Shown here piece after piece: positions 44,963 through 51,956 of a stretch of DNA of 64,000 nucleotides. The notes under the pieces are model-generated. The model did no database searches and was not told the origin of the DNA. It saw only the letters and a program-made list of their open reading frames with translations. Source of the DNA: Thermoplasmatota archaeon (GTDB lineage Archaea; Thermoplasmatota; JAKEGO01); contig JANQNK010000020.1 of assembly GCA_028279595.1 (NCBI GenBank), positions 1-64,000 of the forward strand, given 5' to 3'. The position numbers and the translations under genes were made by a program. The stretch's first letter is position 1, and each line of letters opens with the position of its first letter.

Positions 44963-46402
44963 TCAGAGAAGTACTGTAAGTCCGTACGCCAACGCTGCCG
45001 TCGGAGCCGAGGCCAGAATTACCGCGATGCCGAGATGCTCAAGCTTCTTGATCCTGGACAGCGAGACGCCGTGAGCGATTATCGCCACGGCGACGAAGGC
45101 CTCGACGAGGGCGGCCGTGGGGAGCTCATGCATGTAAAGAGTGACAGAAAGGACCCCCATGGATGCACCGATCGAGAGCAGGGCCGCACCGTAGAGGATC
45201 CTCCTGATCGGCCAGTTCGAGCGGCTCATGATGATGAGGACAATGCCGACACCGGCGATCAGGAAGGCCACCGGGATGACCCTGGGGTCATCAATGTCGC
45301 TGAGAGCGTAGTAGGGAACGAATATGATAGAGTAGATCCCGGCACCGAGGGAGATCCCCCTCAGTCCTGGGATTCCTATCCCCCAACCCTTCCCGCTTAG
45401 GAGAACCGTCATCACACCGAGGACGAGCCATGCCTCGACGTGCCCTTGCTCCTGACCGGATGCGGGTATCATCGAGGCGATGCCCTGCAGTACGAGCATC
45501 GTCCCCGCGACGGACATCATCATCTCCCTGCTCCTCCTCTCCGGTAGGGCTTTGTAGAAGACGAACAGAGAGAACGCCATCAACGGGACCATTGGGGTGT
45601 CCGGATGCGAGAATCCCCTGATCAGATAAGATAGGTGGACCAACACGATCGCTGCTACAGCCATCGGCATCCATGTGATGCCAGCCCGTCTGCCGAGCTC
45701 CATCGTTCCCGATAGGAACATCAGTCCTGGAATGTAGGCCATGAGAAGTACCAGGGTGTTGTCGACGAGAATGAAGGTTGCGAGGAGCAGTGCGATCCCT
45801 GCCGGCAGGGTGACGGAGATCAATCCCTTCAGGATCTCCTCCTTCTGCGCAGCGATGTCACGCCAATCCATCCTATCACCGTAACCGGACGGTGGAGGTA
45901 CATCCCGGTGAGCATCATCCTCTGGAACTGACTCATCGTTCTCACTGGTATTTTCCTCATCATCGGGGAAATCCGGCTCCGGAGGAGGTACAGGTCGTCC
46001 GATGTCCTCACCGAGTTCCGATAGTTTGATGACCTGCAGGGGGCTGAAACCCGAGTTGACAGCGAAGGAGAACGGCACCTCCGCGCCATCGACAAAGACG
46101 GTGCAGGGGTCCAGGCCGTTCCTCAATTTGGTCGATTCCGACAGTCCGTCGGGTGTCAGGATATAGGACTTCTGGCTCCGGGCCTTGCCACGGATGCGCG
46201 AGAGCGTTACCTCCACGTGTCCCTTGTCGACCATCTTCGAGAGAACGATGGCCACGTAACCTCGCTTGATCGACGTCGCCTCGGCGATGCCGGACTGGGT
46301 GACCTCGGGCGGCCTCTCGTAGTCATCGGCGGACCGTATCCAATCCGAGAGGTGGAGGAGTATCTTCTCCTCGGCCGTCAGTCTCGGCAGTGACATCGGC
46401 AT
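44963..46402 (-). CDS. Membrane protein with N-terminal winged-helix (MarR-like) domain and multi-TM C-terminus
   Basis: EKILLHL...TQSGIAEA..I.R..V...L..MV.KG.V...Y.LT..G, then about 9-10 hydrophobic segments; TATATAA box at 46422-46428. Confidence 0.75.
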   Translation of the reverse strand: MPMSLPRLTAEEKILLHLSDWIRSADDYERPPEVTQSGIAEATSIKRGYVAIVLSKMVDKGHVEVTLSRIRGKARSQKSYILTPDGLSESTKLRNGLDPCTVFVDGAEVPFSFAVNSGFSPLQVIKLSELGEDIGRPVPPPEPDFPDDEENTSENDESVPEDDAHRDVPPPSGYGDRMDWRDIAAQKEEILKGLISVTLPAGIALLLATFILVDNTLVLLMAYIPGLMFLSGTMELGRRAGITWMPMAVAAIVLVHLSYLIRGFSHPDTPMVPLMAFSLFVFYKALPERRSREMMMSVAGTMLVLQGIASMIPASGQEQGHVEAWLVLGVMTVLLSGKGWGIGIPGLRGISLGAGIYSIIFVPYYALSDIDDPRVIPVAFLIAGVGIVLIIMSRSNWPIRRILYGAALLSIGASMGVLSVTLYMHELPTAALVEAFVAVAIIAHGVSLSRIKKLEHLGIAVILASAPTAALAYGLTVLL

Positions 46403-46593
46403 GTGGTAGCCCGTCAGGTCGTTATATACCTTATCGAAATCCCTTCCACGTCCTTCCCCGGAATATCTGGCCCGGGCTGAGAACCCTTCCGGTATCGTAC
46501 CGCTATGTCCGTGCAACTGCCCGTTGCGGTCCATCGTGGTCCCAGCTCTTTCCATGCCGAGAACGGCCGTTCCCGACATCCTTGATCACTTTC

Positions 46594-49500
46594 CTAGGCC
46601 GATGTTATCGTTATCTCTGGTGATTCCGCCCTCAATCCAGGCTGGTACATGTCGTATACGACCATCGAGGCAATGGTCGAGGTCGCCTCGAGGTCGGCCC
46701 TGATGGTGTACGGGATCTCGATCTCGGACCCCGGACCGATGGGCGTGATGTAGACGAGAACGGTTCCGTCGTCGTCTTCCCAGTTGTCTATATCGCCTTC
46801 CTCGATCATCGTGTCGAGGTCCCATGTCATCTGTTCGAACCCTGCGGGCGTTGGCATCTCGATGAGGATCATCTGGAGCGGGTCGGTTCCGTTGTACGTT
46901 ATCGACACGGTGCCGTTGACTATGTCACCCGTGCTCACGTTGACATCGCTCATGATCAGGTCGATATCGATCGGTAGTATGACCGGTTCGTAGGGCATGT
47001 AGTACGATGATATCAGCTGGAATGCGATCTGTCCGATGCTGGCGGATCCGATCGTAACATCGAACTCGTCGTCAACGTATGGCCTGAGATCGATGTACCG
47101 TGTCACTTCGGCGTTCTCCTCGGTAATTGTCTCCTCGTGGACCAGCGTTCCGTCGATCGACACGGAGACCGCCATCTCCTCGACATCTAGTATCGCCTGT
47201 CTCGCAATGGCCTGGAAAGCCACGACCGTGTCCCTGGTCCCGAAGAACCCTGTGGTCGTCCTGTGATTGAGGAGATACCTCGTCCCTGCCGTCGCATAGA
47301 ATGGTCTAAGGTCGTTAAGCGCCATGACGCAGTAACCGGTGGTCTCGACCACTTGAGGGGTCGAGCTCCAGCGCCAGTAGTAGCGGTCGTCGCTTCCCGA
47401 GTCGATCATCGTGTTGTCGGTTGTCCAGTAGGTCTCGTCACCGTCCACGATGGCCAGCTCCTTGAGCCTGTCCGCGATAGGAGTCGTCTGTGAGTGTCCC
47501 CGTTCCTCCAATACTATCAGGGATAGTGCGAGGGAGTAAGGATCGTCCCATATCTCGCTTAGATGAGAACCGATGTAGGCGACGGCGTCATCGAGTGCCG
47601 TTCCATCGTATCCGGAATAGATCAGGGACCTGGCGACATAAGCCGTCGTCGCAACGGTCTTCGTCTTCAGCACGTCCGGTGTGTACTCGTAAAAGCCCCA
47701 CTCGGGGAACGTGAACGAGCCGTCGGAATGCTGCAACTCCAGTATGAGTGCCTGCATGTCGGTGATGACCTTGTGGTCGACAGCGAATCCCGAGTCTATC
47801 GCGTCCTGGAACGTTATGAGGCCCCATGACGTGAGCCATGGGTGTGGCGCCCTGTCGGATGGGAACCATACGATGCCCCTCCCGGGTCCGTCCGGATTTT
47901 CCATGAGGAAGGTGAGCTCGTGGAGGATGCCCTGAACGACGATCTCCTCGTACTCACGCTTCTTGTCGTCGCCGATGCTGTCGTCGAGCAGCCTGTAGGC
48001 GATGACGTCCATTGCGAGAGTGGACATGCTCTGCTCTCCGCAGCCGCTGACATAGTGGATGTACTCCTCAGCACCGTCCATCGCTACAGCGTTCATCGAG
48101 CCCTGGAGCTTTATGTAGGCCATCTCGCTGCCAGGGACACGAAGCGGGTCCATCTCGATCGTGGTCTCGACGGTCATGTCGTCCTCGAGTATCCCGTTCG
48201 TGACGTTGTCGATCCTCAAACCGGTCGGTTCGACCCTGATCTTCCTGATCACGGAGTCCGAAAGGATGCCGTTCGTCGCATCGAGCCTCACTGAGGCCTC
48301 TCCGACCTCGTCCGCCACAAGGCGGAAGGAGATCGAGTCCACTGAGTTCGCGTCGACGACGACCGTTCCATCGGTTGCCCCGACGATGGTCATTCCCTCC
48401 GCAGATATGTCAAGTGCGATCGTTGACTGCTCATCGAGATAGTTGTAGACGAGAGCCTTCAGTTCGAACTCGTCGCCTAGAAGCGCCCTTACGGGAACGT
48501 CTGGCTCTACGAAGAAGTCCTGGAACACCGTGATCTCGATGTCGTCCGTTCCGATCCAGCCCTCCATGGTGGACGCAACGGTCTCCATGCTCCACGTGGT
48601 GATGGTGTCCGGTGCTGTCAGATCGATCGAGGCCATTCCGTTCTCATCTGTCTCTATCATCGGATTCCAGTACCACGTTTCAGGGAAGTACTTCCGTACG
48701 TGGGTCACGGATTTCCCACCGGCCGATGAGTAATCATCGCCGGATCCGGCCTGGGAACCGTTCCCGGCGCCCAATGCGTTCTCGGGAACACCGCCATCTG
48801 CTATGAAATCCCATTCATCCCAACCACCCCGCCATCCACCATCCTCCTTCTCGAGGAGCTCCCCGGAATCCTCATCCGCGCTGCTTGAGGGTGCGGACAT
48901 GTAGGAACCGATGCTGTCCTCAGAAGTCGGCGTGATGGTCTGGGTCATTATCGCTGCAGGCGGAAGTGCGACAAGAGCGACTGCAAGCATTGCATATGCT
49001 GACGCCGTCCTTGCCTTGCTGACGAGATACATGAATGCGATGACCAGGACGAGCCCTATCGAGAGGATGGCGGGGGCCATGCCCTCTGCCTGGAAGTCGA
49101 GCGCTTCGTTCGTATCGTGGATGTAGGCGCCGATCTGGACCTGTTCCTCTCCGCCCGTCGGCACGTAGCCATCGATGCCAGGGGCGGATTCCTCTCCGTC
49201 CATGTACCTGAAGACCTGGTAGACCTCCTCGTCCTCGTAGAGATCGGATGCCGTCATCCTCTGGGCGAGTTCGAACACCGAGGTATCGATGATCCTGATA
49301 CCGAGCGCTGCCTGGACCGGAAGGTCGTGCCTGTCGACGGAGATATCGACCGAGAGGTCGTCGCCGGGTTTCACCGTCGATGACGACGGTGTCGCTGATA
49401 CGGTCAGCGCATCGGGGTCGATGACCGCGACGAGTGCGCTGGAGGTGGCCGAAGAAAGGTCGTCCGCTATCCTGAGCGCCCTTACCTCGATGCCAGGGGC

Positions 49501-51024
49501 CATCTGCGGCGTGGTGGTGAACGAGAATGAACCGCTGCCCTCGGAAAGGTCGAACGTTCCTGAGCGGACACGGGTGCCAGACGTGAAAACGTCGTAATAC
49601 CCCTTCGTAGAGAGGCCACCGCTCGAAACGACGGAGAACGTTGCTATCTCCCCGACATCGTAAGAGTACATGCCGGGAACGATCTTGATCCCGTCCTTGA
49701 CGCCGTCCAGGTCCAGTACGTATTGCGCGGTCGTGTCGCCGTCGGTGACGTTCACCTCGATGTAACCGCGATGTTCGGGAACGGTGAAGGTTATCGGGGT
49801 CATCCCGAGGCTGTCCGTCTCGAGGTCCCATGAACCAACGACCTCGGGTCTTGGATACCACCAGCCTCTTGACTGATCGTCGTTCGGGTCCTCCCAGTCG
49901 TCGGAGTCGTATTCGAAGAGGTTGGCCTCGACAGATGCTTCCGCAGGTCGACCATCCGGATATGTCACTATCAACCAGTAGGTGGACTCAAGGCCGGCGA
50001 TGTTCCAGTCACCGACCACCGCGAGGGTCAGAGGCGACTGGAAGAACGATGTCGCCAACGTCTTCGTCTCGGTATGGTCCGCCGTGTCAGTTACTGTGAT
50101 GTTGAACAGGAACTGGTCGAATCCGGACCAGTTCGTTCCTGGTGTGAAGTCTACGATAAAGGTCCCGGAGAGTGAATCGCTCTCGAGGGTATTCAGCGAT
50201 GTGGAACCGTAATGGTCGTCGTGGCCGATGATCTCGACCTCGATCTCCCCCTCCACAGGCTGTCCGAACGAATAATCGATGGTCAGATCGAAGGTGATGT
50301 TATCTCCCGGAACGTACCATGCCTTGAGCCCGTCAGCGGCGATGATGAACTTGGGAAGGACGTAGCGGTCCACCTTGAGCGAGGCCTCCTCGAACTCGTC
50401 GCCGACCGTTGCCCGAACGGTGTACTCACCGAGGGGCATCAGGTCCGAGAGAGTGAAATCAAGTGCGGAAATCCCGTATGCGTTGACATCCAGCGTACCC
50501 TTGAAGACCTTGTCGCCCTCGGGTGAGAATATGTCGATCTCCACCGCATCGGTCGATGGCGTCCGTGTCGACCTTTCGAACGTCAGGAACCGCATGTGCA
50601 CGGTCTGGCCCGGTTGATAGATCGGCTTGTCGGTCTGGATGATAATTGAGACCGACCTCGACTCGACGACGCTCAGGGTCCCCGTGAATGAGCGTCCGTC
50701 AACGTTCACGACTATCGTGGCGTTCCCGATGGGCGGGATGAAATCGACGTTGGCGATCCCATCACCGTCGGTCTTGCCAGCGTACTTCTCGATCCCCGTT
50801 TCGGTGATTATCTCCACCAGGACCAGCTCTCCCTCGAGCGGTTCTCCGTCCAGGTCCTGAGCGATCACGGTCACCTTGTCCGACTCGTCGCTGCTGAGTT
50901 CCGACGGCATCATTACCGTCACGTCCGATTCGGAGGACCTGTAGACGTCGTCCAGACTGTCCACGAAAACGGCCGTTCCGACCAGGGCAAGGCAGAATAC
51001 GATGATTATCGTCCATCTCTTCAT
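46594..51024 (-). CDS. Alpha-2-macroglobulin-family thioester protein
   Basis: IQTDKPIYQPGQTV, YVLPKF, VRKYFPETWYW, PDTITTW, FQDFFV, thioester GCGEQ (CGEQ at 48031-48042), TRDTVVAFQA, receptor-binding-like end (P.GF...VYDMY.P); N-terminal signal/anchor. Confidence 0.93.
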   Translation of the reverse strand: MKRWTIIIVFCLALVGTAVFVDSLDDVYRSSESDVTVMMPSELSSDESDKVTVIAQDLDGEPLEGELVLVEIITETGIEKYAGKTDGDGIANVDFIPPIGNATIVVNVDGRSFTGTLSVVESRSVSIIIQTDKPIYQPGQTVHMRFLTFERSTRTPSTDAVEIDIFSPEGDKVFKGTLDVNAYGISALDFTLSDLMPLGEYTVRATVGDEFEEASLKVDRYVLPKFIIAADGLKAWYVPGDNITFDLTIDYSFGQPVEGEIEVEIIGHDDHYGSTSLNTLESDSLSGTFIVDFTPGTNWSGFDQFLFNITVTDTADHTETKTLATSFFQSPLTLAVVGDWNIAGLESTYWLIVTYPDGRPAEASVEANLFEYDSDDWEDPNDDQSRGWWYPRPEVVGSWDLETDSLGMTPITFTVPEHRGYIEVNVTDGDTTAQYVLDLDGVKDGIKIVPGMYSYDVGEIATFSVVSSGGLSTKGYYDVFTSGTRVRSGTFDLSEGSGSFSFTTTPQMAPGIEVRALRIADDLSSATSSALVAVIDPDALTVSATPSSSTVKPGDDLSVDISVDRHDLPVQAALGIRIIDTSVFELAQRMTASDLYEDEEVYQVFRYMDGEESAPGIDGYVPTGGEEQVQIGAYIHDTNEALDFQAEGMAPAILSIGLVLVIAFMYLVSKARTASAYAMLAVALVALPPAAIMTQTITPTSEDSIGSYMSAPSSSADEDSGELLEKEDGGWRGGWDEWDFIADGGVPENALGAGNGSQAGSGDDYSSAGGKSVTHVRKYFPETWYWNPMIETDENGMASIDLTAPDTITTWSMETVASTMEGWIGTDDIEITVFQDFFVEPDVPVRALLGDEFELKALVYNYLDEQSTIALDISAEGMTIVGATDGTVVVDANSVDSISFRLVADEVGEASVRLDATNGILSDSVIRKIRVEPTGLRIDNVTNGILEDDMTVETTIEMDPLRVPGSEMAYIKLQGSMNAVAMDGAEEYIHYVSGCGEQSMSTLAMDVIAYRLLDDSIGDDKKREYEEIVVQGILHELTFLMENPDGPGRGIVWFPSDRAPHPWLTSWGLITFQDAIDSGFAVDHKVITDMQALILELQHSDGSFTFPEWGFYEYTPDVLKTKTVATTAYVARSLIYSGYDGTALDDAVAYIGSHLSEIWDDPYSLALSLIVLEERGHSQTTPIADRLKELAIVDGDETYWTTDNTMIDSGSDDRYYWRWSSTPQVVETTGYCVMALNDLRPFYATAGTRYLLNHRTTTGFFGTRDTVVAFQAIARQAILDVEEMAVSVSIDGTLVHEETITEENAEVTRYIDLRPYVDDEFDVTIGSASIGQIAFQLISSYYMPYEPVILPIDIDLIMSDVNVSTGDIVNGTVSITYNGTDPLQMILIEMPTPAGFEQMTWDLDTMIEEGDIDNWEDDDGTVLVYITPIGPGSEIEIPYTIRADLEATSTIASMVVYDMYQPGLRAESPEITITSA

Positions 51025-51260
51025 TTCGTTCACCCACCGCTTCTCTGTATAATCACGGACGACGAGGGTACAAATACCCCTTTCTGCTGCATGCAGCATG
51101 CAGGACCTGCCATCGGCGGTAATATTCTCCATCTCGACCGGTCATCCCAATTGCGTTTTTCGGTCGAATTCACACAAAAATCAACGATATATGGCGTATT
51201 TTCTCCAGTCAGTAATGCTTTTATACGCACAATGGCTTTTTCAACGGAGTGGTGGCGGTC

Positions 51261-51956
51261 ATGTTCAGGGACTGTATCAAGGGGTTGGACCGGGTGTTTC
51301 AGAGTGAAATCAAACCTGGCAAGACCATCCTTGTCACGGGCCCTCCTGGTTCTCTGAAATCGAGTTTCGTTCACGCCGTGATGAAGTCATATGTGGAGAA
51401 ATCCGGTGAGTTCGGACTCTTCACGACCCTCGAGCAGGACACCAGCTCCCATCTGGAGGGCATCGAATCCATCGGTCTGGGCCTTTCCAGGAACCTCCAG
51501 ATAACCGATTACAGCGAGATCCTCATGGACGAGTACGGGGGGAACTTCAACTACATGGAGTTCACCGAGATGATGATCGACCACTTCAAGGACCGCTACG
51601 GCGACAGGTTCTCGATATACGGTTTCGACTCCCTGGGTGCGCTCTATTCCATGATGCCAGATGTGAAGAATCCGCGCAAGTTCGCTTTCCAGTTCTTCTC
51701 GATGGTCAGGAAGCACAATCTGACGACCTTCATCATCCTGGAGAGCTCCCTCCAGGGCGATCCACTGACCATGGGGAACGAACCGTTCCTGGTGGACGGG
51801 ATATTCCATCTGGGTATCAAGAGGAACCGAGGTCACCTGACACGCTACTTCCAGGTCATCAAGATGCGCGCGACCAAACACAGCATGGACCCGTTCGCCA
51901 TCAAGGTGGACGACGGCGGCATCGAGATACTCGGACCCCTTCTCGACACCTCTTGA
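51261..51956 (+). CDS. KaiC/RAD55-family single-domain ATPase
   Basis: Walker A GPPGSLKS, TLEQ, FDSL, FLVDGI..L, V.KMR.T.H. Confidence 0.88.
   Translation: MFRDCIKGLDRVFQSEIKPGKTILVTGPPGSLKSSFVHAVMKSYVEKSGEFGLFTTLEQDTSSHLEGIESIGLGLSRNLQITDYSEILMDEYGGNFNYMEFTEMMIDHFKDRYGDRFSIYGFDSLGALYSMMPDVKNPRKFAFQFFSMVRKHNLTTFIILESSLQGDPLTMGNEPFLVDGIFHLGIKRNRGHLTRYFQVIKMRATKHSMDPFAIKVDDGGIEILGPLLDTS

Follow-up and report, generated by a model that had tools for sequence, protein, structure and literature searches.

The window analysed here, a 64,000-nucleotide stretch from a Thermoplasmatota archaeon (assembly GCA_028279595.1, contig JANQNK010000020.1, positions 1 to 64,000), carries on its minus strand the gene of a thioester alpha-2-macroglobulin (A2M), followed 14 nucleotides downstream by that of a winged-helix protein with 11 membrane helices, hereafter the partner, and preceded by a perfect palindrome close to a TATA-like box. 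The A2M gene product is a member of the A2M/TEP superfamily, as its domain order, fold, thioester motif and variable bait all show. At the bait site it departs from the familiar plan: two hydrophobic helices joined by a short basic loop are inserted ahead of a long acidic linker, and this hairpin recurs at the same position in 96 archaeal thioester proteins. The features are listed below, with residue numbers given for the longest open frame (protein P0001, 1512 amino acids), from which 36 is subtracted to obtain numbering from the start ATG at 51024.

51087..51096, no strand: perfect 10-base-pair palindrome CTGCATGCAG, the sole copy in the window, conserved in the relative L054
46594..51024, minus strand: thioester A2M gene, 1476 amino acids from the ATG at 51024 (MKRW...), from open reading frame, translation and Pfam
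50962..51015, minus strand: N-terminal hydrophobic segment, residues 40-57, a signal anchor or signal peptide (Kyte-Doolittle hydropathy 2.53)
49267..49689, minus strand: A2M bait-region domain (A2M_BRD, residues 482-622; MG5-MG6), from Pfam
49072..49284, minus strand: conserved segment ahead of the hairpin, residues 617-687, from the alignment of 96 proteins and the AlphaFold2 (AF2) model
49021..49071, minus strand: first hairpin helix AILSIGLVLVIAFMYLV, residues 688-704, predicted to run from outside to inside (hydropathy 2.49; helical in AF2)
49000..49020, minus strand: basic loop SKARTAS, residues 705-711, predicted to be cytoplasmic from the charge pattern
48946..48999, minus strand: second hairpin helix AYAMLAVALVALPPAAIM, residues 712-729, predicted to run from inside to outside (hydropathy 1.87; AF2 helix 710-729)
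48700..48942, minus strand: acidic, disordered, hypervariable linker, residues 731-811, from AF2 confidence (predicted local distance difference test, pLDDT, of 22-27) and column entropy
48412..48678, minus strand: A2M domain (Pfam PF00207, residues 819-907), opening with the invariant FPETWYW block, from Pfam and alignment
47203-48102, minus strand: TED domain, residues 1011-1310, from Pfam
48031..48042, minus strand: thioester motif CGEQ, residues 1031-1034 (GCGEQ 1030-1034), from translation and Pfam
44963..46579, minus strand: partner gene, 538 amino acids, with a winged helix at about residues 63-159 and 11 membrane helices at 239-537

The open frame of the A2M gene extends to 51132 (46594..51132, minus strand; 1512 codons), but its true start is probably the ATG at 51024, because the DNA upstream of it, promoter elements excepted, has diverged in L054, a relative of 78% identity. 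The first 36 codons of the long frame (window positions 51025-51132) hold those promoter elements, have no equivalent frame in L054 and probably are untranslated. Pfam finds in the protein, in order, MG2 (163-246), MG3 (256-311), A2M_BRD (482-622), A2M (819-907), TED_complement (1011-1310) and A2M_recep (1420-1503), each scoring above its curated cut-off, and the residues G-C-G-E-Q are invariant in a 44-sequence alignment of relatives. An AF2 model of residues 313-1512, built from 44 relatives, reached a mean pLDDT of 73.6, and its best Foldseek matches are native CD109, A2ML1, C5, TEP1, A2M and ECAM, with E-values from 1e-55 to 1e-42. Protease-triggered rearrangement followed by covalent trapping is the predicted function of the protein, whose gene is the single A2M gene of the source genome (2.29 Mb, 86% complete).

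To our knowledge, A2M, complement and TEP proteins exist in soluble, lipid-anchored or GPI (glycosylphosphatidylinositol)-anchored forms. An earlier note on this DNA, made from its letters, had proposed that two hydrophobic helices with a short basic loop and acidic, flexible flanks lie at the bait site of this protein, and the strings it quoted are indeed found, as quoted, in one open reading frame, between LGIRIIDTSVF (residues 610-620; 49273-49305) and VRKYFPETW (residues 812-820; 48673-48699). Only three 19-residue Kyte-Doolittle windows in the protein rise above 1.6, namely 42-60 (2.53), 686-704 (2.49) and 712-730 (1.87), and Pfam places the hydrophobic pair between A2M_BRD (482-622) and A2M (819-907), not within a folded MG domain, the placement that the note had named as contrary to its proposal. 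Human A2M from residue 730 onward lies directly after the annotated human bait region, and VRKYFPETW aligns with human residues 730-738 (6tav numbering). The segment from MG6 to VRKYFPETW spans about 195 residues in the archaeal protein, with two predicted membrane passages.

The AF2 model agrees with this placement. It contains helices at 618-627, 631-644, 674-707 and 710-729, the last two of which leave the final MG6 strand, stand outside any MG domain and are followed by disorder. Residues 617-687 comprise two short helices, a flexible acidic stretch and a juxtamembrane helix continuous with the first membrane helix; pLDDT falls below 50 at 650-687 and to 22-27 at 724-809. Both flanks of the hairpin are acidic, the 81 residues after the second helix containing 16 D/E and 3 K/R. 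Because the loop is rich in K/R, the positive-inside rule would put it in the cytoplasm and both large halves of the protein outside, and hydropathy together with that rule supports the prediction that the two helices form a true membrane hairpin. The helices might instead form a hydrophobic plug, buried in the folded protein or in an oligomer in the native, spring-loaded state and never entering the membrane. Native A2M bait regions do lie partly inside the molecule, and AF2 models the two helices with a confidence of only about 65. Against this, two segments of 17-18 residues with next to no charge across 96 sequences, combined with an interfacial Trp, an invariably K/R-rich loop and disordered acidic flanks, constitute the signature of a membrane hairpin, and in sister clades the hairpin alternates with other membrane anchors, as described below. 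We therefore give the plug hardly any credence.

The architecture and its conservation, like the charge pattern from which the topology follows, are established by comparison with relatives. A search with residues 560-900 returned about 35 proteins of 30-35% identity, with two hydrophobic segments 85-130 residues ahead of FPETW, and a bait-region profile returned 25 clusters (at 50% identity) with E <1e-30, top matches that span essentially the whole profile. Scanning species-representative genomes for FPETWYW gave 46 loci, in 31 of which two inner helices were called; in a few more only one rose above threshold, which we read as a weaker first helix. Nearly all loci with inner helices belong to Thermoplasmata or Thermoplasmatota metagenome-assembled genomes. 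In the full set, 96 of 96 thioester proteins of one clade carry two charge-free segments at the same position, the archaeal conservation that the note had asked about, while identity across the region is about 25%; the hairpin is far beyond chance. The first helix has 0% charged residues in the 96 sequences and conserves W689 (84%) and G699 (74%). The second is hydrophobic and essentially charge-free (K/R at most 3% at three starting columns), and its sequence is not conserved. In the loop, columns 708 and 709 are K/R in 74% and 51% of the 96 sequences, and among 35 members the loop averages 2.9 K/R versus 0.26 D/E over a length of about 3-15 residues. Ahead of the hairpin, D616 and Y643 are invariant in the 96 sequences, and E621, G628, Y638, LP657-658 and A677 are conserved.

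Behind the hairpin the picture is one of variability. In the 96-sequence alignment the columns of residues 730-811 are rich in gaps and exceed 3 bits of entropy, and across 35 members the linker after the hairpin measures 52-156 amino acids and averages 14 D/E versus 4 K/R. Because it is acidic, disordered and hypervariable, we infer that this linker (residues 731-811) is likely to be the protease bait proper. The earlier note had further suggested that intramembrane or cytoplasmic proteases could act as the trigger, in which case such an enzyme would cut the hairpin or its loop and so spring the trap from within. We consider this very improbable. The second helix does contain a helix-breaking PP pair (724-725), as seen in some intramembrane-protease substrates, but the pair is not conserved, the commonest residue at both columns reaching only 28-31%; a basic loop of about 3-15 residues leaves little for a soluble protease to reach; and Pfam identified no protease family in the partner or its orthologues, in which the conserved positions of the 11-helix domain include no His, Ser, Asp or Cys motif.

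A tree of 272 A2M-like proteins (336 columns, bait excluded) places the hairpin in an evolutionary setting and carries the principal argument about its role. In it the archaeal thioester proteins group together in a clade with 111 members and support 99; 96 of them have the hairpin, 95 of these in one pure clade, a distribution that suggests that the hairpin arose once and was strictly kept. Each of the 15 sisters without a hairpin seems to bear another feature. Seven (including named Hadarchaeota and Thermococci loci) combine a cleavable ASA-type signal peptide with a basic-tailed C-terminal helix. Of the remaining eight, six, among them named Altiarchaeota and Methanogaster representatives, have an N-terminal lipobox, and two, P0074 and L042, are N-terminally incomplete or unclear. 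The C-terminal helix is present in no hairpin protein. It is because the hairpin alternates with the C-terminal helix or the lipobox of its sisters that we assign it an anchoring role. The bait regions of the hairpin-less sisters measure 103-129 residues, with a front half homologous to residues 617-645 of the window's A2M, so that the hairpin family has gained about 85 extra residues.

The N-terminus of the hairpin family further bears on anchoring. An extended basic tail leads into a stretch of 19-23 uncharged residues and the conserved VYNxD..YL, and unlike the sister clade the family has no ASA-type cleavage motif here. By its length and the missing ASA motif the segment looks more like an uncleaved signal anchor, with a G-x-A cleavage site also possible. 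By eye, the A2M N-terminus MKRWTIIIVFCLALVGTAVFV contains no canonical lipobox of the L-[AS]-[GA]-C pattern. The last 45 residues of the A2M contain no hydrophobic window that could serve as a C-terminal GPI signal, and a GPI anchor is in any case unlikely in an archaeal host.

Beyond the thioester clade, many A2M-like proteins without CGEQ (P0058, P0086, P0095, P0114, P0120, P0223 and about 40 others) have 4-10 membrane helices between A2M_BRD and A2M, at the position that the hairpin occupies here. These polytopic proteins are scattered over many separate clades of the tree, and the inserted block has no Pfam family. Some of them (P0114, P0046, P0111) open with a zf-HC2 anti-sigma domain and continue into a membrane helix, a domain order by which they are predicted to be anti-sigma factors with an A2M as their outer part.

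The second gene of the locus encodes a protein whose winged helix is MarR/PadR-like and predicted to be cytoplasmic. Pfam matches MarR_2 weakly in the window's protein, and among 21 orthologues it finds HTH_Crp_2 in 17 and MarR_2 in 8. AF2 models the winged helix (63-159) with pLDDT above 90, together with 11 helices, and VIA-align superposes the former on AF1382 (Z 12.5, root-mean-square deviation 2.1 over 85 residues) and, at Z of about 11, on many MarR proteins. The membrane domain belongs to no known family by Pfam, and Foldseek against PDB and the wide VIA-align search matched the winged helix only, although at 538 residues the model was too long to test the membrane domain fairly; the partner profile likewise found nothing for that domain among PDB sequences, and Pfam gave no match to a transglycosylase or transpeptidase family. 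Most orthologues have a CPxC...CPxCG zinc-ribbon-like motif between winged helix and membrane helices, a place where the window's protein has no Cys pairs.

The gene pairing is plain to see: partner orthologues of 445-642 residues lie directly downstream of a hairpin A2M in at least 22 loci, and beside none of seven hairpin-less A2Ms. Co-occurrence was scored in 401 genomes of the window's phylum (162 genera). The bait profile matches 18 of these, in 16 of the 162 genera, and the 11-helix domain alone matches 8, from 8 genera, every one of them among the 18, leaving 0 of 383 hairpin-negative genomes. In two genomes, G004 and G093, A2M and partner are on different large contigs, so that the two co-occur even when unlinked. 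The membrane domain was used in this count in place of the whole partner, the profile of which was dropped after it matched 231 of the 401 genomes via its common winged helix. In these 231 genomes many other proteins, 350-1100 residues in length, begin with a winged helix of the partner's type (for example G000:C11:138555-139013), which suggests a large, lineage-specific transcription-factor family built on one DNA-binding module. In G093 (loci L053, G093:C104, and L052, G093:C19) the gene next after the A2M, like the one next after the partner, encodes a protein with an N-terminal hydrophobic segment and a length of about 380-395 residues or more, and a second, partial thioester A2M-like gene adjoins the hairpin A2M on the opposite strand. 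A KaiC-like ATPase gene (51249-51956, plus strand), divergent from the A2M gene, does not qualify as a further member of the module, since the A2M neighbourhoods of 46 related loci contain no homologue and its synteny extends to L054, the closest relative, alone.

Upstream of the operon stands a DNA site that is shared across the family. The palindrome CTGCATGCAG lies about 10 nucleotides upstream of a TATA-like GGTATTT (51072-51078), and both elements are kept in L054 while the surrounding intergenic DNA has diverged. A palindrome with the core ACATGT, of which TGACATGTCA, TTTACATGTAAA and CTACATGTAG are typical forms, is found at 21 of 25 hairpin loci, 70-150 nucleotides before the codon of the first membrane helix and slightly upstream of a TATA-like box, often in two copies; only in L007 does it lie farther out, at about -190 to -220. 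The background rate amounts to 0.07 per 250 nucleotides, and six hairpin-less loci yielded no copy. Upstream of the window's A2M the exact ACATGT palindrome is missing, and the variant CTGCATGCAG (core CATG) takes its position. We regard CTGCATGCAG as the probable operator of the A2M-regulator operon, and infer that it is bound by the partner, predicted from the sequences to be the dedicated regulator of these two genes. At four hairpin-less A2M loci (L018, L024, L033, L035, named Hadarchaeota and Thermococci) copies of CGTTTCA flank a TATA-like ATGTAT/TTGTAT box, a pattern that suggests a separate conserved operator.

The earlier note had also suggested that bait cleavage could release the trap or transmit a signal, and partner and palindrome together open up such a signalling role for the hairpin, whereby it would dock on the partner's 11-helix domain and, moved or freed by bait cleavage, would alter a membrane-embedded transcription factor at the palindrome (core ACATGT, CATG here), thus turning protease attack on the envelope into gene expression. 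The occurrence of the 11-helix domain in 8 genera and exclusively in hairpin-positive genomes (8 of 18), its persistence where the genes are unlinked, and the absence of a partner from hairpin-less sister A2Ms all speak for such a relay, as do the conserved W and G of the first hairpin helix and the conserved candidate operator upstream of the operon; an N-terminal signal anchor would perhaps make anchoring by the hairpin redundant, and in bacteria the fusion of zf-HC2 to A2M-like proteins whose bait position holds membrane helices (P0114, P0046) points to A2M ectodomains wired to transcription elsewhere. Yet a dedicated regulator would travel with its target gene even without any contact between the products, and the co-occurrence amounts to one or two evolutionary events in related genomes, so that phylogeny confounds it. 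The cytoplasmic loop, moreover, is too short to carry a signal itself, and no sensor or enzyme family can be recognised in the membrane domain of the partner. A complex prediction for the hairpin (P0001 665-744) with the 11-helix domain scored 0.00, a result that counts neither for nor against contact. We consider the relay possible but doubtful.

The reading that we prefer, and hold with evenly balanced confidence as a whole, is that the hairpin serves to tether the trigger of a cell-surface protease trap to the membrane, that the acidic linker is the bait, that cleavage frees the thioester half to capture the protease, and that the partner is a dedicated regulator acting at the palindrome. 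In this scheme the basic N-terminal tail would remain inside the cell, followed by the first hydrophobic segment and by MG1-MG6 outside; helix 688-704 would enter the membrane, the basic loop of 3-15 residues would sit in the cytoplasm, and helix 712-729 would lead out again to the 81-residue acidic linker serving as bait and then, all outside, to MG7, CUB, the thioester domain and the receptor-binding domain. The hairpin would act mainly as a tether that keeps the trap's trigger at the membrane surface, a task for which sister archaeal A2Ms would use the C-terminal helix or a lipid anchor. A protease cutting the linker would set the thioester-bearing half loose from the tether, and the freed half would rearrange and bind the protease covalently; the resulting complex may stay on the N-terminal half via the shared MG6 domain, or may be shed. 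The partner would regulate the two-gene operon, probably at the palindrome upstream of the TATA box.

Several points weigh against this tether model. An N-terminal segment that stays uncleaved as a signal anchor would by itself fix the protein in the membrane, and a second tether would then call for some other reason. The topology derives from hydropathy and charge, AF2 giving the two hairpin helices the confidence of only about 65 noted above, and the choice of which linker is cleaved comes from variability alone. Furthermore, the restriction of the 11-helix partner to the hairpin form, together with the conserved Trp and Gly of the first helix, hints at a specific intramembrane contact over plain anchoring.

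Few protease traps have been studied as thoroughly as A2M, complement and TEP proteins. That at least 96 archaeal thioester proteins are predicted to pass their bait region through the membrane would mean that the trigger loop tolerates, and may exploit, membrane passage. The finding bears on the origin of membrane tethering and signalling in the A2M superfamily, and it supplies a candidate operator/regulator pair for uncultured Thermoplasmata-type archaea. The strict pairing with a membrane-embedded DNA-binding protein and a predicted operator outlines a testable path from protease attack outside the cell to archaeal gene expression. Should the relay prove true, it would represent a new kind of transmembrane signalling device, with a complement-like thioester trap as extracellular protease sensor and with the anti-sigma-A2M fusions as a bacterial parallel.

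A literature search, for which most subscription journals were outside reach, brought up no account of an A2M with membrane helices in its bait region, of any Thermoplasmata A2M or of A2M fused to an anti-sigma domain. Archaeal A2M homologues have been described as predicted surface proteins with a signal peptide and a TED with intact CxEQ, with Halobacteria, Methanomicrobia and Thermococcales as the lineages named in passages of Makarova et al. 2021 (PMC8416519); those passages mention no bait membrane helices, no such partner gene and no operator. The partner resembles membrane-bound one-component factors of the ToxR/CadC type and anti-sigma factors with extracytoplasmic sensors in combining a cytoplasmic DNA-binding domain with membrane helices; its 11 helices, however, match no known family, it lacks a sensor domain on the periplasmic side, and any link to the A2M hairpin would be putative.

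Among bacterial traps, ECAM is held by a lipoprotein anchor at its N-terminus, has CLEQ as its motif and has PBP1c for a partner. Such type I A2Ms (E. coli ECAM/YfhM, Salmonella A2M; PDB 5a42, 4u48, 4ziq) resemble the archaeal protein as prokaryotic, membrane-attached, monomeric thioester traps thought to guard the envelope (Foldseek E about 1e-43), whereas the archaeal A2M has CGEQ, no canonical lipobox that we could see, a bait hairpin as its putative anchor and, instead of PBP1c (pbpC), a winged-helix/11-helix partner. Human A2M and A2ML1 (PDB 6tav, 7o7l-r, 7q1y) share with it the domain order, GCGEQ and the VRKYFPETW block directly after the bait, but they occur in soluble form, in plasma or epithelia, and their bait measures about 40 residues. 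Human CD109 (PDB 8s3o, 9fx2, 9fx3) is the best structural match and is likewise a monomer-type thioester trap on a cell membrane. In passages of a study of that protein (PMC12927315) it is called the sole GPI-anchored member of the superfamily, and its bait cleavage is described as leading to rearrangement, covalent thioester capture, loss of contact with the anchored part and release of the complex; by analogy, release of the complex after cleavage is possible for the archaeal A2M as well (PMC12927315). The two nevertheless reach the membrane by different routes: CD109 has a C-terminal GPI on MG8 and a soluble loop as its bait, whereas the archaeal A2M, which has no C-terminal hydrophobic signal, carries a predicted membrane hairpin within the bait itself and is accompanied by a putative membrane-bound regulator.

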